Below, in pieces: positions 1,739-41,338 of a stretch of DNA of 64,000 nt. Source of the stretch: Candidatus Marsarchaeota archaeon (lineage in GTDB: Archaea > Micrarchaeota > Micrarchaeia > Micrarchaeales > Micrarchaeaceae); contig JAMCZQ010000007.1 in assembly GCA_023485295.1 (NCBI GenBank), positions 26,335 to 90,334 on the forward strand, given 5' to 3'. Both the position numbers and the translations under genes were made by a program. Position 1 is the stretch's first letter, and each line of letters starts with the position of its first letter. The notes below the pieces were generated by a model, which was not told where the DNA came from, searched no databases, and was given only the letters and a program-made list of their open reading frames with translations.

Positions 1739-4090
1739 TCATTCGAATGCGTAATCTATGTCATCCACAGACACTAGTTTTATATATCCTGCTGAAATGT
1801 AAAGCTTGAGCTCCTCAGCCGCAGGATCTGATTTTGAATAAAGCAAGTCTTTGAAATCCTGCATCTTATTCTCATCAAGGAAGACCAGATATGTCTTTGA
1901 GTTTGCCGTTATTGTTACGCTCTTGAATTTGCTCGTTGGAGCATAAATGATTATGTTCCGCTTCTCACCGTGCACTAGTATGCTCGTATCAGCGTTTTCA
2001 GCAGAGTCCAAGTCAGTAAATACGTATGCATGCGTAACGCAGTAGAGCCTTAGCTTCTTGAAAATTGCCAGGTACTCTATGTCATGGCCGCTTTGCGCTA
2101 TCCACTCCTTTGGCGCATAGAGGTCTCCTGCAGTCACAAGCAACCCGGCTCCAACCAACTGGTCCAATACAACCTCTATATTTGCCTCTGTAAGGGTTAC
2201 TGGTATGCCATTATACCTTATGTTATTCGCTATCGCTACTTTTATCTCCGCTTTTGAAAGTGGCATGTAGCGCCAGTGGTAGAAGATGTTGAGCTTTGTA
2301 AAGGTGTTTACTACGTCCTGTGCCTTGAGCGATATTGCAGTCTTCTGCTGCTTTGGCAGTCTCGGGACATCAATGTAGAATTCATCCCTGTTGGGCGCCC
2401 TTACCATCGTTACCATCAGCAATACTACTATTATGACCACAATAAGCGAAATGTCCCTAACACCTATGTGTATCACTGGCGCAGGGTTGGAAGTCGAATA
2501 TATGAGATGGGTCGAAAGCATGCTAAAATTATATTTTAGCTTGCCGTACTGTATCCCAACTGTACTTGGCAGTGCATAAAGCAATGTGCCGTTATTTATT
2601 GTTCCGTTGGATCTATAGTTTCCGTTTAACGTCACGTTATAACTTATTCCTGAGAGCGGCACCCCTGCGGCAGTGATGTAAAACCTGTATATGTTGTGCG
2701 TATAGTTCGCTGCAATCTCGCGTATGCTAACATTCGGTATGTCGAATAATGCCGCAGCGTACTGCTGATTAGAAAAGCTGTCCAGGGTTATTATATACCT
2801 GCCGGGCCCTTCAAGCAGCTTCATGTATTTAACGAAAGTAAAATTTCCAGAAGCAGATATGTAAGGCAAAGGTATTGACGAAACTGTGGACATGTTGATA
2901 TTGTATATGGTCAAATGCGGCTGAATGCCTATTGGCGTTGCCGAATGCGTGAACACCTCCATTGTTATGTATTCAGCGACATTCGGAATTATAAGCCCTG
3001 GCATTGATATGCTGCCGTTATAGCCATATGACGGGAACGAACTCAGATAGTAATACGTTTTACCTGGTAAATAACTGGAATTGGTATATAGCACAACGCG
3101 CAAGTTGCCGGAGAGAAGCCCGCGCATGTTCTGCGGAGTATAATTTATCGGCTTCGGCTGATTCATTATTATGCCTTCAGCACCAAAATCATGCTTTGAC
3201 GGGTTTATAGATATGTTGCTGATCCCATAAGAGTAGCGCGGCAGCCAAAAGCCTAGCGATATAGCCTTTGCCATATCATCAGCCGCATCGGAAACGTTGT
3301 TCCATGAATCAAGGTAGTTCGAGAAGGCAACTATGCTGCCGTTTAAAGCATTCACGTATGTGGCGCTGCCGAAATTATTGCCTATTGTAAAGGAGAATGT
3401 TGAGCTATTGAAATAGAAATCCGGTCTATGGGTCACAGAAGAGCCACCAGTGACCATGTAATATGGCACATTGCTATTTGGCACGATTATTCCATCTGGG
3501 AGTATGACCCTGGAAAAGGACTGGCCTATGTATATTATGCTTGTTCCTTTTCCAAGCAGGTAGCCTATTAGGGTGGTGTTGCTGTAGTTTCCTAGCATTA
3601 CGCTAGGCAGCAGGCCAGTAGGTATAATCAATATCGAGTCATTTTCGATGGAGGCTACAGAGGACATGTTTATTATTGTCACATTCGGGTACATGGAGCC
3701 AAGTCCGTATTCCTTTAAAGAGCTGTTCACGTCTCCGTAAAACAGCGAAATGCCTGCGCAGTTCACGCAATCCGAAGTTGCATTAAGGATGTACACTTTG
3801 ACAGGAAACGGGCTTTTGAGCAGCGTTGCGTTGAAGTACACCTTAGATATGTTCGAGGCAGAATATGACACGAGAGAATATGGGAGTATCAGCGTGCTGC
3901 TGTTATAATCAAGCGCGTTCTGATAGCTGACATACGCGCTTAGCGACGTATTGAGGCGCACGTGCGTAACCGTCGTACTCGGGGGCGCTTTTATATGGCT
4001 TAAGACTACAGTAAGGTATAAGCCGCTCCCAAGCATTGCAACTAAAAATATTACGACAATAACTGCTATTATGACTTTCAGCTTTGCCAA
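1739..4090 (-). CDS. Large bitopic surface protein: N-terminal signal anchor, ~520-aa ectodomain with ~26 N-x-S/T sequons, second TM, ~220-aa cytoplasmic domain. Last gene of the T4SS-like block.
   Basis: 783-aa ORF with TTG start. Hydrophobic segments VIIAVIVVIFLVAMLGSGLYLTVVL and ISLIVVIIVVLLMVTMV. Sequons counted by eye. No family recognised. Confidence 0.6.
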   Translation of the reverse strand: MAKLKVIIAVIVVIFLVAMLGSGLYLTVVLSHIKAPPSTTVTHVRLNTSLSAYVSYQNALDYNSSTLILPYSLVSYSASNISKVYFNATLLKSPFPVKVYILNATSDCVNCAGISLFYGDVNSSLKEYGLGSMYPNVTIINMSSVASIENDSILIIPTGLLPSVMLGNYSNTTLIGYLLGKGTSIIYIGQSFSRVILPDGIIVPNSNVPYYMVTGGSSVTHRPDFYFNSSTFSFTIGNNFGSATYVNALNGSIVAFSNYLDSWNNVSDAADDMAKAISLGFWLPRYSYGISNISINPSKHDFGAEGIIMNQPKPINYTPQNMRGLLSGNLRVVLYTNSSYLPGKTYYYLSSFPSYGYNGSISMPGLIIPNVAEYITMEVFTHSATPIGIQPHLTIYNINMSTVSSIPLPYISASGNFTFVKYMKLLEGPGRYIITLDSFSNQQYAAALFDIPNVSIREIAANYTHNIYRFYITAAGVPLSGISYNVTLNGNYRSNGTINNGTLLYALPSTVGIQYGKLKYNFSMLSTHLIYSTSNPAPVIHIGVRDISLIVVIIVVLLMVTMVRAPNRDEFYIDVPRLPKQQKTAISLKAQDVVNTFTKLNIFYHWRYMPLSKAEIKVAIANNIRYNGIPVTLTEANIEVVLDQLVGAGLLVTAGDLYAPKEWIAQSGHDIEYLAIFKKLRLYCVTHAYVFTDLDSAENADTSILVHGEKRNIIIYAPTSKFKSVTITANSKTYLVFLDENKMQDFKDLLYSKSDPAAEELKLYISAGYIKLVSVDDIDYAFE

Positions 4091-4103
4091 TCCCTATACA
4101 CCA

Positions 4104-4238
4104 TTAATACTCCTTCTTTTTTGCAAAGGCCTTTGAAAAAAGTCTTGTAAGCGCATTCTCGTGGCTTCCTACGCGTTTAATGATCCCATAGATCCTTATG
4201 TACTTGATCCTCCTGTTTATCCTGACGTCATATTTCAT
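4104..4238 (-). CDS. Possible 44-aa basic micro-ORF (MKYDVRINRRIKYIRIYGIIKRVGSHENALTRLFSKAFAKKKEY)
   Basis: Not in the ORF track (under 60 aa). The ATG lies 3 nt after the stop of the 4242..4973 gene, and the ORF ends 13 nt before the TTG start of the 783-aa gene. It fills an otherwise unexplained gap inside a tightly packed operon. Confidence 0.3.
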   Translation of the reverse strand: MKYDVRINRRIKYIRIYGIIKRVGSHENALTRLFSKAFAKKKEY

Positions 4239-4241
4239 GCT

Positions 4242-4973
4242 TTAACCCTTGAGCTCTATATAGCCTGTTGAAACCATCTTGTTTAGCATCTGCTCGACGC
4301 GCGGAGGGGATATCTTGTAGGTTTTTGAAAACTCCATAAGGTCTATCGTATTGTTATGCGCATCGATCCAGTCCTCTATCATTACCATGAGCGACTCGTC
4401 CGAAAATGTCTCAAGCGATGACAGCCTGTTTTTCAGATCCCTGTTTTCGGCTGAAAGCTGCGCTGCCTGGACAGTCAGGTTTTTATTCGAAGCGGTAAGC
4501 TCTATGTTGAGCCTCTTCAATTCCCTGTATTCATTGAACAGCGAATCGTAGTTGTTGAAAAGCGCGCTGTAATTTTGCGACAGCGAGTTAAGCATGTCGT
4601 CTATGGCAGAATCCACATACTGGTATGTGCCTGCGGGGTCTGCATAATAGAGGTCAGTTATCAATGACAATATGCCAAGAAGGTTCTTTATAACATACAG
4701 CCTTCGCATCTTTTCGCTTGTGTCCTGCGCTATCGAATATTGCACAGATATCGTGTCAGGCTTCAATGTTATTATGAAGAACAGGAATGGGTTTTTCTGT
4801 ATATCCCTGCTTTCTATGTTCAGCATCACAAGGCTGTTGTCCGGATTTATTTTTATGGAGAACATCTGCAGCGTGGAAAGCCTTTTGGATATGGTCTGGA
4901 AGTCGCCGGTCAGCGTACCCTTAAGCGTGAACTCCGCAATTTTGGGCTCAACAAGCCCCGTTTCATTAGCCAT
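4242..4973 (-). CDS. Hypothetical protein: N-terminal domain, central coiled coil, C-terminal winged-helix-like module
   Basis: 243-aa ORF. Heptad-like stretch ELKRLNIELTASNKNLTVQAAQLSAENRDLKNRLSSLE. C-terminus MEFSKTYKISPPRVEQMLNKMVSTGYIELKG resembles a wHTH. Confidence 0.55.
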   Translation of the reverse strand: MANETGLVEPKIAEFTLKGTLTGDFQTISKRLSTLQMFSIKINPDNSLVMLNIESRDIQKNPFLFFIITLKPDTISVQYSIAQDTSEKMRRLYVIKNLLGILSLITDLYYADPAGTYQYVDSAIDDMLNSLSQNYSALFNNYDSLFNEYRELKRLNIELTASNKNLTVQAAQLSAENRDLKNRLSSLETFSDESLMVMIEDWIDAHNNTIDLMEFSKTYKISPPRVEQMLNKMVSTGYIELKG

Positions 4974-5063
4974 TCAAACAAACCTTAGCCAATTTGTGCA
5001 TTATAATTTTTATATGCACACTTTTATAATGTTTTAGCCGCACTTCTTATATTCAAAAGCGCA

Positions 5064-5447
5064 TCAACTCTTTATACGGGCAGTGCCCTTTTTGGCTTCC
5101 GGCTGCGCCTTCAACCCTGGCGTATAGCTCAGAAGGGACAATGCATACATAAGCGCAATGACAACAATGCCAGCGACAACCGCCCCGATGCTCCTGCCTG
5201 TAGCTATAAGCACAGCGGCAAAAAGCACACCTATCACCAAATAGGATATTGTCTTGGTGTTATACGAATCCCTAGCCTTTTTATATTTTACATAGCAGTC
5301 CTTGCAAACGACAAGCCTGTAGCCCTTTTCGTTCTTAGTCACGTTCTTCTTAAACCAGCGCATCGCGTCTATAATCCTGTCGTTTTTTACTTCAAGGCCG
5401 TCCTTCTCCAAGCCGCATATTATGCAGCGCGATTCCTTCTTCATCAA
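5064..5447 (-). CDS. Zn-ribbon (CxxC...CxxC) protein with C-terminal double TM anchor
   Basis: 127-aa ORF. CIICG ... CKDC, followed by ISYLVIGVLFAAVLIATG and AVVAGIVVIALMYALSLL. Confidence 0.6.
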   Translation of the reverse strand: MMKKESRCIICGLEKDGLEVKNDRIIDAMRWFKKNVTKNEKGYRLVVCKDCYVKYKKARDSYNTKTISYLVIGVLFAAVLIATGRSIGAVVAGIVVIALMYALSLLSYTPGLKAQPEAKKGTARIKS

Positions 5448-5448
5448 A

Positions 5449-5754
5449 TCAACTTAAGCTTATGGTTGCATCGAATATCCTTCCCGATTCAGCAAGCAGT
5501 CTCTGCTCCTCCATGCTGTTTATTGCATCGTTAATGGTTACATCGTCCATGCCAAGCCTTCTAAATATGTTTATTATGGCATCGCGCTTCAGGTTTATCT
5601 TTTCAAGCATTCCGGCAAAGGCTATGGCGTTTACGTGCCTGTGCATCTTCTCCATGTCTGAAAAGAGCTTCTCTATGCTGCTCTCATCTACCTTGTATAT
5701 GGTGAGCACCCTTCTCAGCTCCTGCCTGCTTATCACAAACGTATCCTTAGGCAT
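5449..5754 (-). CDS. Small helical protein, stand-alone paralog of the C-terminal ~62 aa of the adjacent ATPase
   Basis: 101-aa ORF whose start overlaps the ATPase stop by 8 nt. An ungapped alignment of YKVDESSIEKLFS...FRRLGMDDVTINDAINS to the ATPase tail YNVNVDSINKIFS...LKSLSIDDMLITRIISS gives about 16/62 identities. Confidence 0.6.
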   Translation of the reverse strand: MPKDTFVISRQELRRVLTIYKVDESSIEKLFSDMEKMHRHVNAIAFAGMLEKINLKRDAIINIFRRLGMDDVTINDAINSMEEQRLLAESGRIFDATISLS

Positions 5755-7273
5755 TCATAACACCTGTCGATGAAATAATCCTAGTTATAAGCATATCATC
5801 TATGCTGAGGCTCTTCAGGAACGACACTATGTCTGCATTCGTGACCCCGTTCGTTGCCATGAGCCTTACAAAGTCAAGTATCTTCAATGACCTGCCTTCG
5901 GTGTCAATGGTGCTGAATATCTTGTTTATAGAATCAACGTTCACATTATACTCTATGAACTTGTTCTTAAGCTCCTCTTCCTCAAACTGGTAATCGCGCT
6001 GTATAATGCCTGCACTGAGCTCGCTTTGCGTCAGCACATCTGACAGGTCTATTGTGTACACGTACAGCGGCTCCTCGCCCTTGACCCTGTCCAATACGAA
6101 TATTTCTGGGAACTGCAGCGATGTCTGGAAAGCCATGTTAACCGCGGCCTGCCCAACTCCAAATTTGCTTATCTCAGACCTTATGAAGTCTGAAAAATTA
6201 AGGGATCCCTGCACGTAGTCAAGGAACTTTTCGAACTTTATCCTTAGTATGAAGGATGTTCCCACGTTTGAGAATATTGCTTCGTTTATGTCTGTTGGGT
6301 TTTGTGACGCCACTATAAGGCCGAACTGGTACTTCCTGCCCTCCCTTACGATCATAACGGCATCGCTTTTTTCATCGCCTGCAATTTTCCACGCTTCATC
6401 AAGCACCACCAATGTGCGTATGCCCTTATTTTCGCTCCAGCCCTCGAATCGCATGCGCTCCTTTAACGTCTGCAGTATGAACAAGGCAGCAAGGGCCCTG
6501 AATCGTTCATCAGGCAGGCCGGACAGGTCTATATCAACCAGCCCTGAGCTTGCGAGCTTCTGCAGGTTTATTGTGCTTTTCCTTGAAAAATAATCCTCGC
6601 CCTCCCTTGCAAATTGCCTTAGCCTGTATATTGCATTTTCAAGCTCTGCAGGATATTCATAGGTGCCTTCCTGCAGCTGCTCCTCGAGTATCGATATCGC
6701 ATCCTTCAGGGTAGGCGCGTCTTTTCCTTCCGGCGCAGGCTCTGCTATGTTGAACCCTGCGTTGACATACGCCTGCTCTATAGCTTCTTCTGTGAGCCGC
6801 CTCTGCTCCGGATATGCTGCTATATCCGTCAGTATCTCAAAAGATGTCAGTATCTGCTTTGTCCTGTCCAGGGGTTTCATTCCTGAGAGGTCCATGATGT
6901 TTATATAGTCTCCTTTGCCTAGCGATACTATTACGCCGCCGCTCTGTTTTACCCATGCTTTGTACTCGGCAGCCCAGTCTATTATCACTGCATTTGTATC
7001 CCATATATAGCTGGCCCTTATTAGGAAAGTTTTCACGAAATAGCTTTTTCCCGCGCCTGTTATTCCTACAACTGCTATATGCGGGTTCGTGAGGTTCGTG
7101 AAAGACCAGCTGAACGGGACCTTGAACAGCTTCGTGCTTCCTATGTATATTGCCTTGAATGGGTCGTTTATCAATACGTTTGCAGGCGGCTCAGGGGGCC
7201 TTGACATGAAAGCCCTCTTCCCTATTTCATTGCTCATTATATGCTGCAATTTTAATATGGACATTATAATCAA
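5747..7273 (-). CDS. VirB4/TraC/TrbE-type (AAA_10/DUF87-like) secretion ATPase; a CedB-like candidate
   Basis: 508-aa ORF. Walker A GITGAGKS, IIDWAAEY, APTLKDAISILEE, Walker B VVLDEAWKI, REGRKYQFGLIVASQNPTDI. The DEAW plus RKY..Q..D pattern is VirB4-like rather than HerA-like. Confidence 0.75.
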   Translation of the reverse strand: MIIMSILKLQHIMSNEIGKRAFMSRPPEPPANVLINDPFKAIYIGSTKLFKVPFSWSFTNLTNPHIAVVGITGAGKSYFVKTFLIRASYIWDTNAVIIDWAAEYKAWVKQSGGVIVSLGKGDYINIMDLSGMKPLDRTKQILTSFEILTDIAAYPEQRRLTEEAIEQAYVNAGFNIAEPAPEGKDAPTLKDAISILEEQLQEGTYEYPAELENAIYRLRQFAREGEDYFSRKSTINLQKLASSGLVDIDLSGLPDERFRALAALFILQTLKERMRFEGWSENKGIRTLVVLDEAWKIAGDEKSDAVMIVREGRKYQFGLIVASQNPTDINEAIFSNVGTSFILRIKFEKFLDYVQGSLNFSDFIRSEISKFGVGQAAVNMAFQTSLQFPEIFVLDRVKGEEPLYVYTIDLSDVLTQSELSAGIIQRDYQFEEEELKNKFIEYNVNVDSINKIFSTIDTEGRSLKILDFVRLMATNGVTNADIVSFLKSLSIDDMLITRIISSTGVMNA

Positions 7274-8100
7274 CTCTCCTGGTCAAACATGTTTGTCAAT
7301 TCGCTGAACGTTGTCGGCAGTGAAAAATTGAAGTTGAATGTTGCATAAAGCTCCCTGCCAATGATCCTCTGCGTTGCCACATCGAAGGCGCTGAAATTCA
7401 GCTTAAGCTGCTCTATCTGGCCTTCCAGCGCGTCAAGAGCTGCCTTCTCCGACACTCCAATTGCAGTAGTCTCTATATACATGACCGTAGCTATCGGCTT
7501 TTCTCCCTGCGAGATTCTGTTTATCTTTGCCTGTATTGTATTGAGCTTTCTTTGGATATCTGATATTGTGACTTCGTTGGCATTGTTCTGCATGGCTCTT
7601 GAGAGCTGGAATTCCTGGTACGAACGTTTGCCTTCAAGCTCGTCCCTTATTCGCTGCACGTCCTGCCCTGCCGAAAGCACGTGGAATTTGAATGGAAAGT
7701 TTACGTTCATTACCATCTTTTCCCATGTGTCTGGGGCATTGGTCATTTTGTCCTCGTCATCCTCAGGCGCATTCTCCTCCCTGAAAGTGTAGCTGAATAG
7801 GTTCACGGCTATATACCCTGTTGCATAGAATATGCCGTTCACGTTCTTTATCACTGTGTTCTGCGCCTTGTTTATAAGGTAGTCCTTAGAAGGCTGGAAG
7901 CTAACACCCAGAATCGAGGTTATTGTTGAGAAGATCCTGTCATCAGCCCAATTCATTGCAAGTATGAAAATGGCTGTCAATACGAGTAGCAGTATCGCAA
8001 TCGCATGCAGTATGCCTTTTCCGAAAGCCGACAGGCCTACGAAAGCAAACAGTATTATTATAAGGCAGAAAAGCAGATACATGAGCTTGACTTCATCCAT
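7270..8100 (-). CDS. 2-TM plus soluble-domain protein, paralog of 8100..8933; candidate VirB3 / VirB4-N-domain-like partner of the ATPase
   Basis: 276-aa ORF with a 4-nt ATGA overlap with the ATPase gene. N-terminal hydrophobic hairpin. Shared pattern with its neighbour: VIKNVNGIFYATGYIAV versus ILKRVGDNFIATVYISI. Confidence 0.55.
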   Translation of the reverse strand: MDEVKLMYLLFCLIIILFAFVGLSAFGKGILHAIAILLLVLTAIFILAMNWADDRIFSTITSILGVSFQPSKDYLINKAQNTVIKNVNGIFYATGYIAVNLFSYTFREENAPEDDEDKMTNAPDTWEKMVMNVNFPFKFHVLSAGQDVQRIRDELEGKRSYQEFQLSRAMQNNANEVTISDIQRKLNTIQAKINRISQGEKPIATVMYIETTAIGVSEKAALDALEGQIEQLKLNFSAFDVATQRIIGRELYATFNFNFSLPTTFSELTNMFDQES

Positions 8101-8933: not shown

Positions 8934-8951
8934 TATATCATTCTTAGTTTG

Positions 8952-8968
8952 TTTTAAAGTTTAATAAA
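8952..8968 (-). promoter_or_regulatory. AT-rich TATA-like elements (minus strand TTTATTAA / CTTTAAAA) 19-35 nt upstream of the ATG at 8933; possible internal, near-leaderless promoter
   Basis: This is the only AT-rich 50-bp gap inside the block. The spacing fits an archaeal TATA box about 25-30 nt upstream of the transcription start site. Confidence 0.3.
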
Positions 8969-8983
8969 TTTATCTAAACGGGA

Positions 8984-10636: not shown

Positions 10637-10646
10637 TCCATTACAC

Positions 10647-12778: not shown

Positions 12779-14259
12779 CAGACCAATTTTGACAGGCCTG
12801 CAAGGGCCGTATCGCCTCCCATGAGGCCGGATATGCCTATTATCCCGCTCAGCACTATTATGAGATTTATTATAGGTATGAAATATGCCGATATTCCAAG
12901 CACTCCATAAGTCCTCACCAGCATGTAATATCCGTTCAGTGCCTGCGTTTCAGTGCACCCCTGCGGCAGCCCGGAAATGTCAGGCGCAACAGGCACAGAA
13001 TGATTTATAAGGGCAAGCAGCTGCGTTGCAAGCCCGGTAAAAGGTATCAGCAAATAGCTCGTGTCTTCAACCTCCGCATTAAGCAGGTTTCCGTCTGCCG
13101 GCCAGCATCCAGTGCTTTTCGTAGCGTTCGCTACGCTCGGCATGACGTAGAAGTTTGTCACATAAGGCCTGCCTGTGCTATTTGGTATGTAATAAGTCGA
13201 ATTCGTGAAAAGGTTGCCGAACCCGTAATAAGCGCCAAGGTCATTCGAATTGTATGTGAATGGGGTTGTGCTGGTTGGCGGCGTATAGCCCATGAGTGCA
13301 CCAAGGCCATGGCCTAGGTACAGGTATTCTATGGAGAATACCAGCGGGAAGAACAATATTGCGCCTATGCCTATGGCTATCAGCAGCCCGCCTATCTTTC
13401 TTGTAAAGGGCAGTACCCTGAGTATGACGCCGCCAAATATAAGGTACGGCCATATATATAGGAAGATAGAAGTTAAGGTGAGCTGCGCTATAAAGCTCTC
13501 AAGCGCAAGCGTCATCAGCACGCCTATGCTGTCGAGGGATTTGTACACCAGCCTAAGCCCAGCATATGGGGAATTTTGATAGTGTATGAACAGGTCAGCC
13601 TCTGTAGGCGCTGGAAGCATGCACTGCACAGATATTGGAGAAGGTGGCTCAGGCGATATGCATATGTTTATCTGCGGGCTCAGGTGCTCCAGGTAACCAA
13701 TGAAAGCGTCGAATATAAAATACGAGTTTAGGTTGAGCGCAGTCTGGTTCGTAAGGTTTGCTATCACTACTCCTGATGCAGCAAGCGGGTAGTCCGCCTT
13801 CTCAGTAAATGTATTCTGCTTTGCCACTATGTTGCAAAGCCCAGGAAAGCCAGTTGGATTCTTGGAGAACAGCAGCGAGCTTCCTGTAAGCGACTTTGAG
13901 GCATTCAGCACCGAAAGCTGCGAACTTTCGTTTATGCCATTGCACAAGCTTAGGACATTCGCCGGGTTCATGAGCGCCGTTGAGGAAGTTACGGAATAGA
14001 ACGCATCCCCGAATATCACCAGCACGCTTACCAGCAGCACTACAAGCACCGCAGTGCCTATGAGCTGGTAAAATTCTGTCATGGCCGACGACTTCACCCT
14101 GGCGTTGCCAAGTATTGCGCCTGCCATATACCATGCTCCAACTATGGCTCCATCAAGCACTATGGCTATTGCTATGAGCGGGAACAGAGATGAGTATACC
14201 CCGTGGAATGCAGAAATCTGCAGCAATATCGGTATAAGCAACATCATAAGCTCGCCCAA
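12778..14259 (-). CDS. Polytopic membrane protein, paralog family member (candidate VirB6/CedA-like)
   Basis: 493-aa ORF. Motifs AMTEFYQLIGTAVLVVLLV and VLPFTRKIGGLLIAIGIGAILFFPLVF. 1-nt overlap at 12778. The start may instead be the Met at 14244, giving a 1-nt overlap with the upstream stop. Confidence 0.65.
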   Translation of the reverse strand: MGELMMLLIPILLQISAFHGVYSSLFPLIAIAIVLDGAIVGAWYMAGAILGNARVKSSAMTEFYQLIGTAVLVVLLVSVLVIFGDAFYSVTSSTALMNPANVLSLCNGINESSQLSVLNASKSLTGSSLLFSKNPTGFPGLCNIVAKQNTFTEKADYPLAASGVVIANLTNQTALNLNSYFIFDAFIGYLEHLSPQINICISPEPPSPISVQCMLPAPTEADLFIHYQNSPYAGLRLVYKSLDSIGVLMTLALESFIAQLTLTSIFLYIWPYLIFGGVILRVLPFTRKIGGLLIAIGIGAILFFPLVFSIEYLYLGHGLGALMGYTPPTSTTPFTYNSNDLGAYYGFGNLFTNSTYYIPNSTGRPYVTNFYVMPSVANATKSTGCWPADGNLLNAEVEDTSYLLIPFTGLATQLLALINHSVPVAPDISGLPQGCTETQALNGYYMLVRTYGVLGISAYFIPIINLIIVLSGIIGISGLMGGDTALAGLSKLV

Positions 14260-16004
14260 AATGACGCAACACCCTCTATGCCGGCATCAAGAGACCGCGC
14301 AAGGCCCATGGCAAATCCTATTGCAACTGCAAGGTTTAAGCCAAATAGGAATACAGCAAGAAATATAAATTCAGACATGTTCTGGATTATGTACGAAGCT
14401 ACAGACACTATAGGAACCCTCAGCGTAGCATACAGCGACGAGCTAAGAAGGTTGTTCGTGACCGGAGTGGATACGCCCAGGCCAGAGCCGAAAATGGAGA
14501 ATAGGCTGTTTTTGCTTGAGGTGATAAGCGTATTGCTTTCCAAGAAAGAAGAGCTCGGAAGAGCTGGAAGCACGTATGCAGTGCTCAGGCAGTTGGTGCA
14601 GCCGTACAGCGGATTCAGCGATGGCGTGTATATCCAATAAATTATGTAGCTGTCGAAAGCTATCATCAGCGGGTAAATTATGTATATCGCTATCGCTATT
14701 GCCAGCACCGCGTTAGAAATCGTTCGAAGGCCTGTGCCGCCGTATGGTATAAACCTTAGTACTAGCGCAACAGGCAGCAGCACTGTAAAAGCAGTATACT
14801 CAAATATGGGCAGCGCCAGGTACTGAAGGAACAGCATGCCTATAGTTATTATCAGTATTGGAGAGAGCGCGTCGAAATACACATCAGAAAGAGAGCCGTA
14901 TAATGTTCCAAAGTCATGCGCATACGATATGGTTACGCTGAATACCCCTCCAATGGTCGGAGATATGCTAAGGTCTTGAGAAAGCACTGTAAATATCCTG
15001 CCGACTATCGCATACCTTATAGAGGTCTGGTAAACGTAGCCTATCAGGTTTATGCCTCGATTCAATGCCAGTGTGCCTATGTAATAATCCGCATATTCGA
15101 ATGGCGTAAGCCCTGTAACTCCAGTGACTCCTGCTGCGGAAAGCACCTTCGAGCCGAGAGAAGCGGAAAGATTGCATGCTGATGTAGTAAGCGAAAGCAG
15201 CACGAGCAGTATTACTATGCTTATAACAAGCTGCGTTATCTCAACCCTTGTTATCTGTGTAAGCCTTACGCGCAAGGATGTTGGCATGAACCTGCTTATC
15301 ATGAAAATAAATGCCACTACAAGGAAACCAAAAAGGATAATTATGTAATTTATCGGAAGCCACCCTGCTATGTAAGGAGAGCCAGGCCCGCCGTAAATGC
15401 TGCAGTAGTTTACTGCAGGCACTACTGTTGTGAAAGTTGTGCTTGTCGTGGAGCTTGTCGATGTTGTCGTAGTAGAGCTAGTAGTGGACGATGTTGTCGA
15501 TGTTGTTGTAGACGTCGTAGAAGTCGTAGAAGTCGTAGATGTTGTCGATATTATTGTAGAGGAAGTTGTTTTTACCGTGCTGGTGGTGGAGCTTGTGGTG
15601 GTTTTGCTCGATTCGCAGGTGCCAAGCCTATATCCACTGTTGGAGAGGACGCATTCTCCACTGCTTGTTTTTGTAATATATTGCGCCTTGGAGTTTGCCA
15701 CGCAGCTGTAGCCTGTATCGCATGAAGAATAGCCGCAATATCCATTAGGCGCATTTATTAGGCAGCTGCTTCCTGCACCGCCAAACACTGGCTGGCTTAT
15801 CAAAGTGCTGTTTTGAACATCTGCAGTTTTGGAATATGCAGTATTAGGCACAATGCTATCTTGGTGGGCCGGCACCATTACAGGCGAGCTTTTTGCCGTT
15901 AAGCTGCTTGCAATATGGCTTCCGGCATATAAGAACGAAGCTACTGCTACAGCTATTATAATCATGTAAATAACTGCAGTCAATGCTTTATTATGCAAAC
16001 TCAC
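14244..16004 (-). CDS. Polytopic membrane protein, divergent paralog family member with an N-terminal Cys-rich plus Thr/Ser-rich ectodomain
   Basis: 586-aa ORF. Divergent core motif FIPYGGTGLRTISNAVLAIAIAIYIIYPLMIAF. N-terminal TM, six Cys within about 50 aa, then a 62-aa T/S tract. Confidence 0.65.
   Translation of the reverse strand: MSLHNKALTAVIYMIIIAVAVASFLYAGSHIASSLTAKSSPVMVPAHQDSIVPNTAYSKTADVQNSTLISQPVFGGAGSSCLINAPNGYCGYSSCDTGYSCVANSKAQYITKTSSGECVLSNSGYRLGTCESSKTTTSSTTSTVKTTSSTIISTTSTTSTTSTTSTTTSTTSSTTSSTTTTSTSSTTSTTFTTVVPAVNYCSIYGGPGSPYIAGWLPINYIIILFGFLVVAFIFMISRFMPTSLRVRLTQITRVEITQLVISIVILLVLLSLTTSACNLSASLGSKVLSAAGVTGVTGLTPFEYADYYIGTLALNRGINLIGYVYQTSIRYAIVGRIFTVLSQDLSISPTIGGVFSVTISYAHDFGTLYGSLSDVYFDALSPILIITIGMLFLQYLALPIFEYTAFTVLLPVALVLRFIPYGGTGLRTISNAVLAIAIAIYIIYPLMIAFDSYIIYWIYTPSLNPLYGCTNCLSTAYVLPALPSSSFLESNTLITSSKNSLFSIFGSGLGVSTPVTNNLLSSSLYATLRVPIVSVASYIIQNMSEFIFLAVFLFGLNLAVAIGFAMGLARSLDAGIEGVASFWASL
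15426..15611 (-). repeat. Low-complexity Thr/Ser-coding tract (62 codons, SSKTTTSSTTSTVKTTSSTIISTTSTTSTTSTTSTTTSTTSSTTSSTTTTSTSSTTSTTFTT)
   Basis: Read directly from the translation. Confidence 0.9.
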
Positions 16005-16006
16005 AC

Positions 16007-17308
16007 CTATGCAATCTTGAATTTACCGACGCCCAAGCTCAGCTTTCCGCCAAGCATGCTTGCTATCGCGCCTGCAATCACCAGCGTTATCACAAGATCC
16101 AATATTATCAATATGAATTGAAAGAGCACAGGCGTTCCATAAAACCCTATGATATTGAATGCCGGATATATTGCGCCATGCCCTGAGAGCATAATGGCCA
16201 TGCCCCCACCCCAGCCGTTTTCAAAGGAATTTGCATACAAGTTCGCGTTTGGGTCACCGGCAGTTTGTGCATCTACAAGTATATCTGAGGCAGTGCCGTA
16301 AGTCGGATATGCTATAACGCAAAGCGCATCTGTGAATAACGATTCCGCAGAAATACCGCTTCCAAAACAGGTTACTGTCGGTGCAGTGTTCTGCTGATAC
16401 AGTATTGGCTGTATGTAATTTGTCATAGGTACATTGAATACAACCAGCATTGCTGGAAAGATGAGCCCTATTGCCATGCCGATTGCTATGAAGCTGCCTC
16501 CGAGCCCACGAAGGAACGGTATGGCGCGGAACACTATGCCTATTGGCAGGAATAGCGCCAGGCCTATGAGCACTATGTAATAAAGGAGGCTGCTGAGGGT
16601 TTCAAGCACAAAGTAAACAGGTATAAACACTACTTCTATGAAGTCCTTTATAAAAGAGTAGTTCGGCAGCTCTAAATTTGACTCTATTACAGAGCTGCTC
16701 AGAAATCCAGAAGACGACCCGAACTGCAGTGCCCCAACGAAAGGTATCGGTATGGGTATCCATGTCAATACTGCAGTGCTCTTAAGCTCTCCTACAGAGG
16801 AAGAAAGGCCTTCGAACGCGTAGAAGCTCTCATTGAGCATCAGCATTGTCGGATCAATGTATGCGCTGTAATCAACCGCATAAAGCTGGTTCAAATTATC
16901 GGAAACGCTGCTGTAAGCACTACTATTCAGCGGCAACGAGACGACAGGCACACTGCTACCAGCAAGAGCAAGCGCTATTGCGCCAACGATAATAAGTATT
17001 GCAAAGATCAAAACAATCAGAAGAGCGCTTTTCGCCGCTTCATAAAGCTCTCCTTGGTACCAGTTCCTCAGCGACCCTATCTGCAGGACGTTTCCCACCA
17101 TGAAGGCTATGCCTATCAGCAGGAAAGAAAGAAGAAGGCCTATAAGCGCAAGCGGTATTGCCCCGGCAATGCAAAGTCCTACGTTAGACGAAGTAGTCGA
17201 AATGCCTGTAAACGGGCATGTCACCGATGTTGTGCTCTGTGCACTGCTAATCGATGCCAATAATACAAAGGCCATGAACGCCGCGATATACGCAGGTTTT
17301 AGTCGCAT
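16007..17308 (-). CDS. Polytopic membrane protein, paralog family member (candidate VirB6/CedA-like)
   Basis: 433-aa ORF with signal peptide MRLKPAYIAAFMAFVLLASISSAQS. Motifs NWYQGELYEAAKSALLIVLIF and AIPFLRGLGGSFIAIGMAIGLIFPAML. Confidence 0.65.
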   Translation of the reverse strand: MRLKPAYIAAFMAFVLLASISSAQSTTSVTCPFTGISTTSSNVGLCIAGAIPLALIGLLLSFLLIGIAFMVGNVLQIGSLRNWYQGELYEAAKSALLIVLIFAILIIVGAIALALAGSSVPVVSLPLNSSAYSSVSDNLNQLYAVDYSAYIDPTMLMLNESFYAFEGLSSSVGELKSTAVLTWIPIPIPFVGALQFGSSSGFLSSSVIESNLELPNYSFIKDFIEVVFIPVYFVLETLSSLLYYIVLIGLALFLPIGIVFRAIPFLRGLGGSFIAIGMAIGLIFPAMLVVFNVPMTNYIQPILYQQNTAPTVTCFGSGISAESLFTDALCVIAYPTYGTASDILVDAQTAGDPNANLYANSFENGWGGGMAIMLSGHGAIYPAFNIIGFYGTPVLFQFILIILDLVITLVIAGAIASMLGGKLSLGVGKFKIA

Positions 17309-17324
17309 ATTTCAATATTGCAAC

Positions 17325-17338
17325 TAATATATTTAATA
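17325..17338 (-). promoter_or_regulatory. TATA-like element (minus strand TATTAAATATATTA) 17-30 nt upstream of the ATG at 17308
   Basis: Lies in an AT-rich 59-bp gap between genes. The spacing suggests a short-leader or leaderless transcript. Confidence 0.3.
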
Positions 17339-17367
17339 CGCTTGTGCAAGGCGTCATATATTGCCTT

Positions 17368-18105
17368 TTACCTCTTCAGCATTGCAAAGCGCCTTATATA
17401 AGTTTCGCTCTGCAGCACTACAAGAAATGGCAATGCGAAGAACGAATCTATAATGAGCGCGGCATAGGCAGCAGCGCTGGCACCCCCGAACGCAATCGGT
17501 ACAAGGTCCACAACGCTGAGTATTATAAATGCAGCAAGCAGCCACAAAACGAAGTAGGCGAATTTCTTCCTCATGAAGTGCAGGCTAGCCTGTATCGCCC
17601 TCACGGGCCTGTTTTCGTCTATGACTATTGAAGTTGGCGCATAAAACAAGAACGGTATCAGTATTATCACAACGATAGCCGTTATTATGCCAGAATAGCC
17701 AGTGTAGTATGTTATGAAATTTATGAATACAGGTATCGCAGTGAATGCTAGAAGCACTATAAAAACATTGCTCGTATTCTTCTCAAGTGAGCGTATGACC
17801 TCACCCTTTATCCTTGTGACTGTCCTGCTATGCTTTACTATCGTATTGATTGCAACTATGGCAAAGCTTAGAAATATCAGGGAGAATATCGTTGCAGCAA
17901 TTATCACTGCGGCATCAAAAAGGTTCAGGTTAAGGTATATGCTGCCAGTCCTAAGCAGTATGCTGCCAAGATCGTTATAAGTAGGAAACGGCGCAAGCAA
18001 CGGTATAAGCACCGCTATGAGAAAAGATATGGAGAAAAACCATATGAGCTTTATGTGCTTCTTGTAGATTCCTGCGGAATCCCCTAAAACCTCAAGCATT
18101 AACAC
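17368..18105 (-). CDS. Multi-pass membrane protein of unknown family (about 6 TM)
   Basis: 245-aa ORF with alternating hydrophobic segments and short basic loops. Co-oriented between the pilin-like genes and the membrane paralog array. Confidence 0.6.
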   Translation of the reverse strand: MLMLEVLGDSAGIYKKHIKLIWFFSISFLIAVLIPLLAPFPTYNDLGSILLRTGSIYLNLNLFDAAVIIAATIFSLIFLSFAIVAINTIVKHSRTVTRIKGEVIRSLEKNTSNVFIVLLAFTAIPVFINFITYYTGYSGIITAIVVIILIPFLFYAPTSIVIDENRPVRAIQASLHFMRKKFAYFVLWLLAAFIILSVVDLVPIAFGGASAAAYAALIIDSFFALPFLVVLQSETYIRRFAMLKR

Positions 18106-18180
18106 TACCTTCCATTATATTAGCAACAGAAATATTAAAAATAGGTCTTTTTGCCAAAAAGCAACAGCTAAGTGCCATCA

Positions 18181-18213
18181 AAGAAAAAATGCAGCCTGCA
18201 TTTTCATGCAGGC
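18181..18213 (-). terminator. Hairpin plus T-run just 3' of pilin-like copy A
   Basis: Perfect 8-bp stem gcctgcat (18194..18201) / atgcaggc (18206..18213) with a 4-nt loop. On the minus strand it is followed by TTTTTTCTT. Confidence 0.5.
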
Positions 18214-18619
18214 GCTTCAACCTCGCGAATCAGCAATATGACTTTATTGCGGACTCTGAGTTTCCTGTCAGGATTGCCAGTATGAACGGCGCGAGTTCTG
18301 CTATTATTACTCCTATTACGCCTCCTACTACCATTCCCATACCATATCCTTGTATGGAACCCTTGCTTTGTCCTGGCATTATGTGTGCAGCTGCATATAG
18401 CGCTCCTCCAAGCACTATCAGTGCCAGTCCCAATATGAATATACCGATGCTTATAGCACTGTATATTGGGCATATAACGCTGGTTATCGTTGCAAATGCG
18501 TTAGGCGCTGCGTATGATACGGTCGATGCGAATGCAAGCATTGGCAGTACCATCAGTACTATTCGGAAGACTTTCGAGTGCAATAGGTTCACTATTGACA
18601 GTAGTTTGGTCTCTAACAT
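18185..18619. repeat. Tandem direct repeat, unit A (period 577 bp), covering the pilin-like CDS plus its 3' hairpin
   Basis: I aligned it by eye to 18762..19196. It is identical except at 18488, 18562, 18608, 18611 and 18614. Confidence 0.9.
18230..18619 (-). CDS. VirB2/TrbC-like pilin candidate, copy A (signal peptide plus helix-loop-helix hydrophobic hairpin)
   Basis: The track ORF 18230..18628 starts at a GTG; the likely start is the ATG at 18619 (MLETKLL), preceded by AAGGTG. Leader ...MLAFASTVSYA/AP. Mature part: SVICPIY..ISIGIFILGLALIVLGGALYAAA - HIMPGQSKGSIQGYG - MGMVVGGVIGVIIAELAPFILAILTGNS. Confidence 0.65.
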   Translation of the reverse strand: MLETKLLSIVNLLHSKVFRIVLMVLPMLAFASTVSYAAPNAFATITSVICPIYSAISIGIFILGLALIVLGGALYAAAHIMPGQSKGSIQGYGMGMVVGGVIGVIIAELAPFILAILTGNSESAIKSYC

Positions 18620-18665
18620 TTCGTACACCTTTATACATCTTTAATTTAATTTCTTAAATAGCACA

Positions 18666-18675
18666 ATTTAAATAA
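18666..18675 (-). promoter_or_regulatory. TATA-like box (minus strand TTATTTAAAT) about 47-56 nt upstream of the copy A ATG
   Basis: Sits in the context GCGAAACTTATTTAAATT, matched by ACGAAAGGTATTTAATTT at the same spacing upstream of copy B. Confidence 0.35.
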
Positions 18676-18754
18676 GTTTCGCAATAAGTCTTGCAATACT
18701 GCGCACGTGCAGCAAACCTGCTTTGTATAGCTGTGGAACATAAAAAAATAGGAA

Positions 18755-18790
18755 CAAAAATAAAAATGCAGCCTGCATTTTCATGCAGGC
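18755..18790 (-). terminator. Hairpin plus T-runs just 3' of pilin-like copy B
   Basis: Same 8-bp stem (18771..18778 / 18783..18790). On the minus strand it is followed by TTTTTATTTTTGTT. Confidence 0.5.
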
Positions 18791-19196
18791 GCTTCAACCT
18801 CGCGAATCAGCAATATGACTTTATTGCGGACTCTGAGTTTCCTGTCAGGATTGCCAGTATGAACGGCGCGAGTTCTGCTATTATTACTCCTATTACGCCT
18901 CCTACTACCATTCCCATACCATATCCTTGTATGGAACCCTTGCTTTGTCCTGGCATTATGTGTGCAGCTGCATATAGCGCTCCTCCAAGCACTATCAGTG
19001 CCAGTCCCAATATGAATATACCGATGCTTATAGCACTGTATATTGGGCATATAACGCTGGTTATTGTTGCAAATGCGTTAGGCGCTGCGTATGATACGGT
19101 CGATGCGAATGCAAGCATTGGCAGTACCATCAGTACTACTCGGAAGACTTTCGAGTGCAATAGGTTCACTATTGACAGTAGTTTTGTTTCCAACAT
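18762..19196. repeat. Tandem direct repeat, unit B
   Basis: See unit A. Confidence 0.9.
18807..19196 (-). CDS. VirB2/TrbC-like pilin candidate, copy B
   Basis: The track ORF 18807..19238 extends further upstream, but the homologous ATG (MLETKLL) is at 19196 and is preceded by AAGGTG. The protein differs from copy A by one Ile/Val in the leader. Confidence 0.65.
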   Translation of the reverse strand: MLETKLLSIVNLLHSKVFRVVLMVLPMLAFASTVSYAAPNAFATITSVICPIYSAISIGIFILGLALIVLGGALYAAAHIMPGQSKGSIQGYGMGMVVGGVIGVIIAELAPFILAILTGNSESAIKSYC

Positions 19197-19244
19197 TTTT
19201 GTACACCTTGACATTTCTTGAATTGAATCATTCAGCAATCATAA

Positions 19245-19252
19245 ATTAAATA
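19245..19252 (-). promoter_or_regulatory. TATA-like box (minus strand TATTTAAT) about 49 nt upstream of the copy B ATG
   Basis: Same spacing and flanking CGAAA motif as copy A. Confidence 0.35.
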
Positions 19253-19425
19253 CCTTTCGTACAGCCACAAATTATGGAATATTTCAATAAAATGGAACGA
19301 ATGTTTAGTGCATTGCGTGAAGCTATAAAAGAATTTGCATAAAAGTATTAAGTATGGGCAGGCATTAACTTCTTTAAGATAAAATCTGCTTTACTATAAG
19401 ACTAGAAACTGCTGATTGTGATTTT

Positions 19426-38919: not shown

Positions 38920-38923
38920 AGAA

Positions 38924-41227: not shown

Positions 41228-41338
41228 AGGATGCACTCGCAGGGGCCATAGTCCTGCTTATATAAGCAGAATCAGGAATAAATGGCAAACAAAAAATAAA
41301 TAGGCTACACCTATTTTTATGCAGTCTTGTATAAAGGC

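Follow-up and report, generated by a model that had tools for sequence, protein, structure and literature searches.

A chromosomal gene block of Micrarchaeota that very probably encodes a split-VirB4 machine related to type IV secretion systems

Introduction

How DPANN archaea obtain what they cannot make themselves is a central question, and the locus described here supplies named candidate genes for it. It is a block of minus-strand genes at positions 1739-19238 of a 64,000-nucleotide stretch of DNA (the window; contig JAMCZQ010000007.1, deposited as Candidatus Marsarchaeota archaeon). What does this block encode? An earlier note, made from the sequence alone, had read it as a chromosomal, domesticated apparatus of a small-genome archaeon that resembles a type IV secretion system (T4SS) or the Ced DNA-import system and is not self-transmissible, and our results support that reading. 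Micrarchaeota possess one membrane and an S-layer, with a pseudoperiplasm of 20-25 nm (10.1101/2021.04.28.441871), so that something must bridge this space; tubes and a docking complex have been seen between a Micrarchaeon and its host by cryo-electron tomography (cryo-ET) (10.1101/2024.05.20.594898). We consider it reasonably probable that the block encodes a T4SS-derived machine of the Ced/Ted kind with an architecture of its own and a role in contact-dependent transfer. For the homologies and the architecture on their own, our confidence is high.

Gene content and host organism

All long open reading frames (ORFs) between 1739 and 19238 lie on the minus strand, and inspection of these ORFs resolved 17 tightly packed genes. 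The description of this co-directional block in the earlier note proved almost wholly correct, except that it had counted 18 consecutive ORFs. In the order of transcription, the block comprises two pilin genes, a gene for a 245-aa protein, six genes for polytopic membrane proteins (433, 586, 493, 362, 348 and 550 aa, numbered from paralog 6 down to paralog 1) and a pair of genes for proteins with two transmembrane (TM) segments (277 and 276 aa, referred to as 2TM_b and 2TM_a). These are followed by the genes for an ATPase, a 101-aa protein, a 127-aa Zn-ribbon protein, a 243-aa protein with a coiled coil and a winged helix-turn-helix (ccwHTH), a 44-aa basic protein and a 783-aa bitopic protein.

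Judged by its sequence relationships, the host of the block is a Micrarchaeon (Micrarchaeota, DPANN). The ATPase is 86% identical to that of Ca. Micrarchaeum sp. A_DKE, which has a complete genome, and more than 1000 relatives of it were retrieved. Identity is 71-86% in the best 120 clusters, of which almost all with a source name bear the label Micrarchaeota. When a single genome was scanned for each GTDB species, 168 genomes with an ATPase relative were obtained, the best 80 of which (63-87% identity) are Micrarchaeota. Synteny was determined by tblastn of all block proteins against 81 loci, representing about 80 species-level genomes.

A putative split VirB4/CedB motor

The motor components are encoded by three consecutive genes:

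5747-7273, minus strand: ATPase, 505-508 aa, VirB4/CedB-type P-loop domain followed by a C-terminal helical domain of ~80 aa
7270-8100, minus strand: 2TM_a, 276 aa, paralog of 2TM_b
8100-8933, minus strand: 2TM_b, 277 aa, N-terminal TM hairpin plus soluble domain

The motifs GITGAGKS, VLDEAWKI and RKYQFGLIVASQNPTDI, from which a VirB4/TraC-type ATPase had been deduced, are present in the ATPase. In Pfam, the protein matched DUF87 (E 3e-16), AAA_10 and the TraG P-loop family above gathering scores, and as a single sequence against NCBIfam it scored 68 bits with CedD, 63 with CD1110-VirB4, 62 with CedB and 53 with HerA. Among 24 diverse members of the ATPase family, the CedB model was matched by all 24 (best E 5.5e-30), CD1110-VirB4 and CedD by 23 each and VirB4_plasma by 22, and the best E values of the VirB4/CedB-type models ranged from 5.5e-30 to 4.6e-22. 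The HerA models were matched by 6-17 of the 24, with best E values of 1e-14 to 1e-16. The nearest ATPase relatives outside the family (870-913 aa, E 1e-40 to 1e-48) match CedB best, covering ~13-587 of its 590 profile positions. Searched with a profile, the PDB gave a different ranking, in which HerA (1.8e-26) and DptH stood above the sole VirB4 match, 4ag5 from Thermoanaerobacter (8.4e-24), HerA being marginally ahead. Judged by a single sequence or by PDB profiles, the ATPase lies roughly as far from HerA as from VirB4. The VirB4-type assignment therefore stands at the family level of NCBIfam, where profile comparison provides the VirB4-family ATPase expected of a T4SS core, and is ambiguous with respect to HerA in the single-sequence and PDB rankings.

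Since the Walker A motif is located at residue 69, with only ~50 residues ahead of the P-loop domain, the ATPase lacks both a HerA HAS-barrel and its own VirB4 N-terminal domain. Such a domain appears to be encoded by the two genes upstream. The paralogy of the two 2TM proteins claimed in the earlier note is invisible to BLASTP and holds at the level of profiles built from ~75 orthologs each, which aligned over 258 columns (hhalign probability 97.3%, E 2e-11). When compared with fused CedB-like ATPases, 2TM_b aligned with residues 1-286 (95.1%, E 3e-8, 252 columns), 2TM_a with residues 1-259 (61.7%, E 8e-5) and the ATPase with residues 265-721 (100%). Because the 2TM proteins align with the N-terminus and the ATPase with the remainder of these fused proteins, the 2TM proteins are, on the strength of these alignments, the detached N-terminal module of VirB4/CedB, and the motor is a split VirB4/CedB. 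This module was not recognised in the earlier note. The VirB4 N-terminal domain with its VirB3-like anchor thus seems to exist in two paralogous, separately encoded copies. In scans of the combined 2TM_a and 2TM_b family (52 members), CedB was the most-matched NCBIfam model, weakly and in 4 members, and VirB4_plasma was matched by one; there was no consistent Pfam family among the 52, and a search of PDB sequences with the 2TM profile was uninformative.

Fused counterparts of the split motor, archaeal-looking proteins of 690-913 aa, were seen in P0259 (from locus L082), P0260, P0267, P0269, P0272 and P0291. They consist of an N-terminal TM hairpin, an N-terminal domain (NTD), a VirB4/CedB-like ATPase domain and a C-terminal extension of ~170-250 aa, and their best NCBIfam match, CedB, reaches only 119-144 bits against a cut-off of 700.

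VirB2/TrbC-like pilins

Two genes at the head of the block encode the candidate pilins:

18807-19196, minus strand: pilin copy B, 129 aa if started at the ATG at 19196, identity with copy A 98%
18230-18619, minus strand: pilin copy A, VirB2/TrbC-like, 129 aa, with a Pfam TrbC match

The two small VirB2/TrbC-like proteins are near-identical, as had been claimed: the genes form a 577-bp tandem duplication with 300 nt at 99% identity. Each protein starts with a leader of ~37 aa ending in VSYA/A, followed by a two-helix hydrophobic hairpin. The sequence around the slash conforms to a signal-peptidase-I-type site (A-x-A), and cleavage would be expected there. For the pilin of the window, the match to Pfam TrbC/VirB2 is weak (E 0.011) but spans positions 12-96 of the 98 in the profile, and 15 of 40 aligned family members match this family (PF04956; best E 1.3e-8). 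A TrbC domain is also given in the precomputed annotation of four homologs. All 97 pilin homologs found are from Micrarchaeota. In an AlphaFold2 (AF2) model, the leader helix is followed by a hairpin of helices 41-80 and 85-118 with a predicted local distance difference test (pLDDT) score of 85-95. Both checks that the earlier note had named for these proteins, a helical-hairpin model and a profile match, were obtained, and the leader with two hydrophobic helices corresponds to the VirB2/TrbC-type pilin of a T4SS core.

Each pilin gene has its own A/T-rich promoter-like upstream region and a downstream hairpin followed by a T-run, and copy B is preceded by a GGTG ribosome-binding site. Exactly two cysteines occur in 82 of the 97 family members (P0121-P0217). 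The first is located at the start of mature helix 1, 39 or 42 residues ahead of a QGY loop motif, and the second within 0-4 residues of the C-terminus, so that the conserved pair lies at both ends of the mature protein. This arrangement suggests a disulfide staple between the N- and C-termini, functionally recalling the head-to-tail cyclisation of TrbC/VirB2 pilins. The cysteines are absent from the leaderless pilins of the minimal operons described below. A homology of the pilin with the N-terminal hairpin of the polytopic proteins, as between CedA1 and CedA, was also considered and is unsupported (hhalign only 53%, for poly5, and 23%).

Six paralogous polytopic membrane proteins

The central part of the block is occupied by the polytopic proteins:

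16007-17308, minus strand: polytopic paralog 6 (poly6), 433 aa, hhalign 98.7-99.4% to the other paralogs
14244-16004, minus strand: polytopic paralog 5 (poly5), 586 aa, hhalign 96.8-98.7%, Cys-rich and Thr/Ser-rich extracellular N-terminal insert
12778-14259, minus strand: polytopic paralog 4 (poly4), 493 aa, hhalign 97.2-99.2%, start probably at 14247, 1-nt overlap with the next gene
11690-12778, minus strand: polytopic paralog 3 (poly3), 362 aa, the protein of the window that directly matches the CedA model
10647-11693, minus strand: polytopic paralog 2 (poly2), 348 aa, hhalign 96.8-99.0%, 4-nt ATGA overlap with the upstream gene
8984-10636, minus strand: polytopic paralog 1 (poly1), 550 aa, the most conserved paralog, median identity 48% across loci

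All fifteen pairs are homologous, with hhalign probabilities of 96.8-99.4%, which bears out the six paralogous polytopic proteins described in the earlier note. They share a TM hairpin with the motif R-x-[IL]-P-x-x-R-x-x-G-G...P, which in poly5 takes the form R-x-I-P...G-G...P. Exactly six paralogs were found in 33 of 33 loci that show the whole upstream part of the block.

The sole NCBIfam match of poly3 is Ced_CedA (E 9.6e-5, residues 192-333 on profile positions 110-240 of 259). CedA was matched by 2 of 60 members of the polytopic family (best 1.5e-5) and was the only meaningful family. The AF2 model of poly6 (pLDDT 74.8, predicted template modelling score 0.69) consists of long TM helix hairpins. 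A profile search in a set of 5.8 billion proteins returned only 30 unannotated hypothetical proteins with no Pfam labels, and those with a source label come from Micrarchaeota-type metagenome-assembled genomes (MAGs); the candidate list of this search was probably saturated by hydrophobic words. We regard a CedA/VirB6-like nature of the polytopic proteins as probable but not established. The label VirB6-like, which the earlier note had implied for a channel protein, is backed by weak CedA matches and by neither a Pfam TrbL/VirB6 match nor a fold match.

Long Thr/Ser-rich, mucin-like tracts lie beside Cys-rich extracellular N-terminal segments in poly1 (residues ~100-170) and poly5 (~130-200). 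The Thr-rich insert of poly1 is specific to this genome, and most other orthologs of poly1 and poly5 are ~370-400 aa long and devoid of such tracts, which may be O-glycosylated stalks or lineage-specific surface variation.

Minimal operons in distant relatives

Distant relatives of the ATPase, with 36% and 27% identity, are encoded in compact operons at 1763-5929 of locus L088 and 5285-9407 of locus L089. These operons contain, in this order, genes for a leaderless pilin of 80-82 aa, one polytopic protein, one 2TM protein and the ATPase, with a ccwHTH gene in L088. Profile comparison related the pilins to those of the block at 82-97%, the polytopic proteins at 97.6-97.7% (poly1 being the best match), the 2TM proteins at 96.8-99.3% (to 2TM_a) and the ccwHTH protein of L088 at 99.1%; the gene at that position in L089 gave no match. 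The neighbouring genes are archaeal housekeeping genes, e.g., PcrB. In relatives of 40-42% identity, only some of the partners are kept beside the ATPase.

The existence of the minimal operon indicates that its components are functionally tied together. Compared by sequence with these operons, the Micrarchaeota block is best described as an expanded derivative in which the polytopic proteins have increased from one to six and the 2TM proteins from one to two, with extra genes added. The minimal operon, itself apparently undescribed, looks like an ancestral or minimal form.

These findings bear on the view that the block is not T4SS-related and that a HerA/FtsK-type pump or helicase for repair, segregation or defence merely adjoins unrelated membrane-protein genes, the TrbC and CedA matches being due to chance. 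In its favour are the PDB profile ranking described above, the closeness of the single-sequence NCBIfam scores of HerA and VirB4 and the weakness of the membrane-protein matches. However, a Walker A motif at residue 69 leaves no room for a HAS-barrel, there is no adjacent NurA, Mre11 or Rad50 gene, the VirB4/CedB models are ahead by 6-14 orders of magnitude at the family level, and the 2TM genes reconstitute a CedB-like N-terminus. Moreover, the genes for the pilin, the polytopic and 2TM proteins and the ATPase are found together in the minimal operons as well as in the 17-gene block, and the TrbC matches span the whole Pfam model in 15 independent family members. We therefore regard this explanation as very improbable. 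A HerA-NurA system in particular was rejected on account of the position of the Walker A motif, the membrane-protein neighbours and the weaker HerA models across the family; the HAS-barrel and the adjacent nurA, mre11 or rad50 genes that define such systems are missing around the ATPase, the nearest Rad50-like gene lying 20 kb off.

Conservation and inheritance of the locus

Gene order is the same almost everywhere in the 81 loci. The complete genome of Ca. Mancarchaeum acidiphilum Mia14, retrieved apart from the species scan, has the same block. In 65 of the 81, top6B follows directly after the 783-aa gene in convergent orientation. Wherever the far end is visible, the block is headed by a pilin gene, even in a genome with a threonyl-tRNA synthetase flank in place of the carbamoyltransferase gene found here. 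The ATPase is closer to that of the window than top6B is in 63 of 63 loci (median 74% vs 61%). As the motor is conserved above TopoVI-B, this comparison suggests that the system is close to essential to the cell.

No integrase, relaxase, VirD4/TraG coupling ATPase or VirB11-type gene was found in the block, no relaxase, coupling protein or integrase in its flanks or among the largest ORFs of the rest of the window, and no tRNA in the window, in line with the earlier note. Its further statement that flanking direct repeats are missing holds for the pilin end (17300-19450), the part that was searched. The closest plasmid relatives of the ATPase (TraC, VirB4-like and DUF87 proteins) are at most 28% identical, phage records gave four weak matches, and IMG/VR gave none; a viral packaging ATPase was rejected on these last two results. 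The GC content of the block is like that of its surroundings.

VirB4 and VirB2 proteins are typical of conjugative elements, and Golyshina et al. speculated that membrane-protein-rich islands in Mia14 might be conjugative (PMC5498576). One may thus ask whether the block is the transfer module of an integrated conjugative element or of a decayed plasmid, which the earlier note would have expected to show as a distribution confined to plasmids and proviruses with integrases. We instead found a chromosomal locus that is syntenic with top6B across Micrarchaeota, with the same order and top6B junction in 65 of 81 loci although the ATPases are only 63-87% identical. It carries no integrase, relaxase, type IV coupling protein or tRNA, shows no repeats at the pilin end, is not distinct in GC and has no close relative in the plasmid, phage and IMG/VR collections. 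The relaxase, coupling protein, integrase or attachment site and patchy distribution of a conjugative element are all lacking, and a mobile module is extremely improbable. We rejected it on the grounds of the conserved synteny, the missing mobility genes and tRNA and the lack of close plasmid, phage or viral relatives. Since order and the top6B junction are conserved, mobility genes are absent and no close plasmid, phage or viral relatives were found, the block is a vertically inherited chromosomal core locus, domesticated and non-mobile.

Accessory genes

The remaining genes of the block encode the following proteins:

17368-18105, minus strand: 245-aa protein with 6-7 TM segments, always between the pilin gene(s) and the polytopic genes
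5449-5754, minus strand: 101-aa protein, stand-alone ATPase C-terminal domain (BLASTP E 4e-4; hhalign 97.2% to ATPase residues 425-503)
5064-5447, minus strand: 127-aa Zn-ribbon protein, N-terminal CxxC...CxxC zinc ribbon and C-terminal TM segment(s)
4242-4973, minus strand: 243-aa ccwHTH protein, N-terminal domain, coiled coil and C-terminal winged helix-turn-helix
4104-4238, minus strand: 44-aa basic micro-protein, at the same position in 53-57 of 81 loci and a called gene in L001 and L084
1739-4090, minus strand: 783-aa bitopic protein, signal/anchor, sequon-rich ectodomain of ~500 aa, TM segment at 536-568 and cytoplasmic domain of ~215 aa

The 783-aa protein was found in 72 of the 81 loci, its cytoplasmic domain being the most conserved part. 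It contains 26 N-x-S/T sequons, all within residues 47-521, compared with 9.1+-2.6 in shuffled sequences, so that its description as sequon-rich and bitopic in the earlier note is confirmed. The 245-aa protein retains its position at 42-55% identity across loci; it has no Pfam or NCBIfam match and is unrelated to the polytopic family by hhalign. Its position would fit a role in pilin maturation or assembly. The Zn-ribbon protein matches NCBIfam cxxc_20_cxxc (E 2.6e-4) and is present in 78-79 of the 81 loci. The ccwHTH protein, with a median identity of 58%, gave only weak Pfam matches, to the ZapB/DUF3450 coiled coils and the Fe_dep_repress winged helix-turn-helix. No informative family match was obtained for the 783-aa, 245-aa and ccwHTH proteins in Pfam and NCBIfam, and none in PDB profile searches of the 783-aa and ccwHTH proteins; the 783-aa profile retrieved only a spurious designed TIM barrel.

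A second copy of the ~80-aa helical domain at ATPase residues 425-503 (window 5765-6001) makes up a gene of its own directly downstream, that of the 101-aa protein. The same domain also ends the distant ATPases of L088 and L089.

Proposed mode of action

From the homologies, paralogy, synteny and conservation described above, we infer pilus formation, subunit stoichiometry, transport direction and cargo as follows. Two highly expressed pilin genes would supply a VirB2/TrbC-like subunit that, after cleavage of its leader, forms a two-helix hairpin, possibly stapled between its ends by a disulfide, and polymerises into a hollow pilus of the conjugative type. Six distinct polytopic proteins of the CedA/VirB6-like kind, each conserved in its own right, would form the membrane platform for pilus assembly. 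On the cytoplasmic face, the two membrane-anchored NTD paralogs would tether a soluble hexameric P-loop ATPase to the channel, and ATP hydrolysis would drive pilin extraction, pilus assembly and substrate translocation. The heavily N-glycosylated 783-aa protein probably spans the pseudoperiplasm and S-layer or contacts the partner cell, and its conserved cytoplasmic domain may dock to the motor. The ccwHTH, Zn-ribbon and small proteins could act as regulators or adaptors.

Judged by analogy, this machine would most likely serve to pass macromolecules, on contact, between the Micrarchaeon and an adjacent (host) cell. The most probable form of such transfer appears to be uptake of DNA or nucleic acid, because of the analogy with Ced and Ted, the absence of a relaxase and a coupling protein, and host dependence (PMC5498576). 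As these two proteins are absent, export of a cognate element is unlikely. DNA import as the specific activity is put forward tentatively.

Several results weigh against the machine and role proposed here. No component reaches the curated cut-off of any named family, and all assignments are by remote homology. As given above, HerA and DptH rank over VirB4 when the PDB is searched with the ATPase profile. Pfam TrbL/VirB6 was matched by none of the 60 polytopic members, which have no consistent Pfam family, and the link to VirB6/CedA is weak, with 3 of 62 proteins scanned at E values of about 1e-5. Foldseek searches of the PDB found no significant match for the poly6 model (best E 0.1, TM-scores <0.2), an outcome that neither supports nor excludes a VirB6 fold, and only generic helical hairpins for the pilin model (best E 0.46). 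PDB sequence searches with the pilin, as a single sequence and as a profile, were likewise uninformative. DNA as the cargo is specified by nothing in the locus, which, unlike Ted, has no linked HerA, Rad50 or ParA gene. Filament, transcript or protein data for the cluster were not found in the Micrarchaeum papers, and cryo-ET of a Micrarchaeon-host pair attributes the intercellular tubes to the host (10.1101/2024.05.20.594898).

The main rival explanation is that the same machine has another job, acting in host contact as a conduit or docking device whose cargo is proteins, lipids or metabolites, or secreting effectors; in its concrete version, the machine is the symbiont-side 'barrel' or tube between Micrarchaeota and their hosts. 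Micrarchaeota are host-dependent and much reduced in metabolism (PMC5498576), 6.7-nm protein nanotubes and a 21-nm docking barrel have been seen by cryo-ET in the envelope of the Micrarchaeon ARM-1 (10.1101/2024.05.20.594898), and Patescibacteria carry an analogous relaxase-less chromosomal T4SS (PMC12102498). The locus itself contributes a protein with a large glycosylated ectodomain, six channel paralogs and an ATPase whose conservation above that of TopoVI-B fits an essential rather than an accessory function. However, no effector, toxin or chaperone-like genes were found in or adjoining the block, and the Ced systems, the only experimentally characterised archaeal relatives, move DNA (PMC9905601, PMC11868833). 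Pure cultures of the host, moreover, contain the nanotubes seen with ARM-1 as well, which is why these were attributed to the host. On balance, this alternative seems rather unlikely.

A more far-reaching version of our proposal is that the cluster is the symbiont-side machine of the Micrarchaeota-host connection and the main, essential route by which nucleic acids and perhaps other macromolecules reach the symbiont from its host, with a minimal form widespread in other uncultured archaea; we regard it as doubtful, although it can be stated in some detail. The channel would be a hetero-oligomer of the six paralogs, possibly six-fold in keeping with the hexameric ATPase, driven by the split VirB4 and capped by a disulfide-stapled VirB2-like pilus and the giant glycoprotein. 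In the cryo-ET images, the whole would be what appears as the thin 'filamentous connections' or nanotubes, or as the 21-nm docking barrel.

Alternatively, the block might produce only an adhesive or structural surface filament, with the ATPase serving pilin extraction and assembly and no substrate passing through. It is established that VirB4 drives pilus biogenesis in bacterial T4SSs, and the duplicated pilin genes with promoter-like and terminator-like signals of their own would fit a filament, as would the lack of a detected coupling protein and relaxase. Yet adhesion in Micrarchaeota is already served by two systems of type IV pili (PMC5498576), assembly alone would hardly seem to call for six conserved channel-type paralogs or for a split VirB4 with its pair of adaptors, and Ced and Ted translocate DNA with the same core set in the absence of a coupling protein. 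A filament alone is accordingly improbable.

Comparison with known systems

The proposed transfer machine most resembles Ced, a system found in Sulfolobales and Desulfurococcales (CedA, CedA1, CedA2, CedB, CedD and CedE). Both are chromosomal and devoid of a relaxase and a coupling protein, and in both the core combines a VirB2-like pilin and a VirB4-like ATPase with polytopic protein, VirB6-like in Ced and probably so here. Both also have two paralogous TM and NTD modules, which in Ced belong to CedB and CedD, and paralogous channel-type proteins, there CedA and CedE (PMC9905601, PMC11868833), and the best NCBIfam matches of the ATPase, the 2TM proteins and one polytopic protein are CedB/CedD and CedA. 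CedB and CedD each combine TM segments, NTD and ATPase, and their N-domains match different parts of the VirB4 N-domain (PMC11868833). In contrast, the NTD modules of Micrarchaeota are separate genes beside a single ATPase gene, there are six channel paralogs instead of one or two, and the pilin, unlike the unprocessed CedA1, begins with a long leader of the cleavable type. The Micrarchaeota block further differs by its 245-aa TM, Zn-ribbon and ccwHTH proteins and the 783-aa glycoprotein, and its host is a DPANN symbiont. The ATPase scores 62-68 bits against Ced model cut-offs of 600-700 and is not an ortholog; over all components, scores of 22-68 bits stand against cut-offs of 330-700, and no CedA2-like gene was recognised. 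Sequence comparison thus points to a cluster that would work like Ced without being a set of Ced orthologs.

Compared by description, the Ted system of Thermoproteales (TedA, TedB and TedC) likewise has a VirB4-like ATPase and a VirB2-like pilin whose leader is of the signal-peptidase type; its 7-TM protein is CedA/VirB6-like, as the polytopic proteins here probably are. It is a domesticated T4SS derivative for DNA import (PMC9905601). Unlike the block, Ted loci are linked to HerA, Rad50 and ParA genes and have a single channel gene and a fused VirB4. The cluster departs from both Ced and Ted in its split motor, fixed six-fold channels, extra conserved genes and occurrence in DPANN.

Three further systems are more distant. 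The MPF-FATA-derived T4SS of Patescibacteria, the candidate phyla radiation, also belongs to ultra-small, host-dependent organisms; nearly all of the lineage has VirB4, VirB2-like pilins occur, a relaxase does not, and host interaction or DNA uptake has been proposed (PMC12102498). It is bacterial, however, with its VirB4 nested in MPF-FATA, and has kept other MPF-FATA components, with neither a split VirB4 nor a six-fold channel expansion; the analogy is one of lifestyle. The rvh T4SS of Rickettsiales, likewise from reduced-genome obligate symbionts, shows tandem proliferation of VirB6 and duplicated VirB2 and VirB4 (see PMC7648143); it differs as a diderm P-type T4SS with VirB7-11 and VirD4 that secretes effectors into eukaryotic cells, and shares general T4SS ancestry only. 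SPEARE of nanohaloarchaea, again compared by description, is a DPANN locus with VirB4/TraG-type ATPases that was proposed as a T4SS-like host-interaction system (PMC10266531), but there a giant Ig-repeat surface protein carries the ATPase domain as a fusion, a second ATPase has a Pfam VirB4 N-domain, and no set of pilin or channel paralogs has been described.

We found no published description of the cluster in the literature searched, which was not exhaustive, and an earlier mention is possible. The Mia14 genome paper mentions type IV pili only, and the cluster is absent from the papers on A_DKE and from a 2025 comparison of 163 genomes of Micrarchaeota. The opinion of the earlier note that no such system has been characterised outside Crenarchaeota and conjugative plasmids agrees with this literature and is qualified by the SPEARE proposal. 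Domesticated T4SS-derived systems, experimentally known only from Crenarchaeota, would hereby be extended to DPANN archaea, and the cluster is a strong candidate for the apparatus by which these exchange material with their hosts. The parallel with the relaxase-less T4SS of Patescibacteria hints at a convergent use of conjugation-derived machines in episymbionts. If the reading of the widespread five-gene minimal form is true, it would carry T4SS-derived import far beyond Crenarchaeota. As the genes are present in two cultivated Micrarchaeota with complete genomes, A_DKE and Mia14, the question is open to experiment.

Gene junctions and genomic neighbourhood

Of the stop/start overlaps reported in the earlier note, those of 1 nt (8100, 12778) and the 4-nt one at 11690/11693 are present; the one at 7270/7273 would need a TTG start. 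The ATG at 7264 is the likelier start of that gene, leaving a gap of 5 nt, because the orthologs have 505 aa. From poly6 through the Zn-ribbon gene, tight junctions with overlaps of 1, 4 or 8 nt or gaps of at most 10 nt are found. Gaps above 50 nt occur only after each pilin gene, after the 245-aa gene, between poly1 and 2TM_b and between the Zn-ribbon and ccwHTH genes. These larger gaps are A/T-rich, which suggests a division of the block into ~6 transcription units, and many starts are preceded by GGTG.

The flanking genes are top6B (88-1725) and a carbamoyltransferase gene (19426-21132), in agreement with the housekeeping flanks, top6B on one side, of the earlier note. Among the 10 largest ORFs scanned beyond 22 kb, nearly all are housekeeping genes (FtsZ, isocitrate dehydrogenase, Rad50-like, Lon-like, XPD, MCM and methionyl-tRNA synthetase). 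The Rad50/SMC-like ATPase of 770 aa (window 38924-41236) overlaps the start of the isocitrate dehydrogenase gene (37687-38955), ~20 kb from the block, and is probably unrelated to it, since there is no conserved adjacency. Past the left end of the window, the source contig encodes a KH protein, RNase HII, a type IV pilus ATPase and SRP54. The pilus ATPase is of the T2SSE/PilB type and lies ~4.5 kb past this end (L083 19988-21304), and the cell therefore has separate type IV pilus machinery near the block.

Finally, several public MAG contigs that carry the Micrarchaeota locus are labelled Methanothrix sp., Acidiferrales bacterium, Acidoferrum sp., Baltobacteraceae bacterium or 'Marsarchaeota' (L004, L013, L055, L003, L008, P0017 and JAMCSV010000013.1 of GCA_023378845.1). 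These labels are probably the result of mis-binning or mislabelling.

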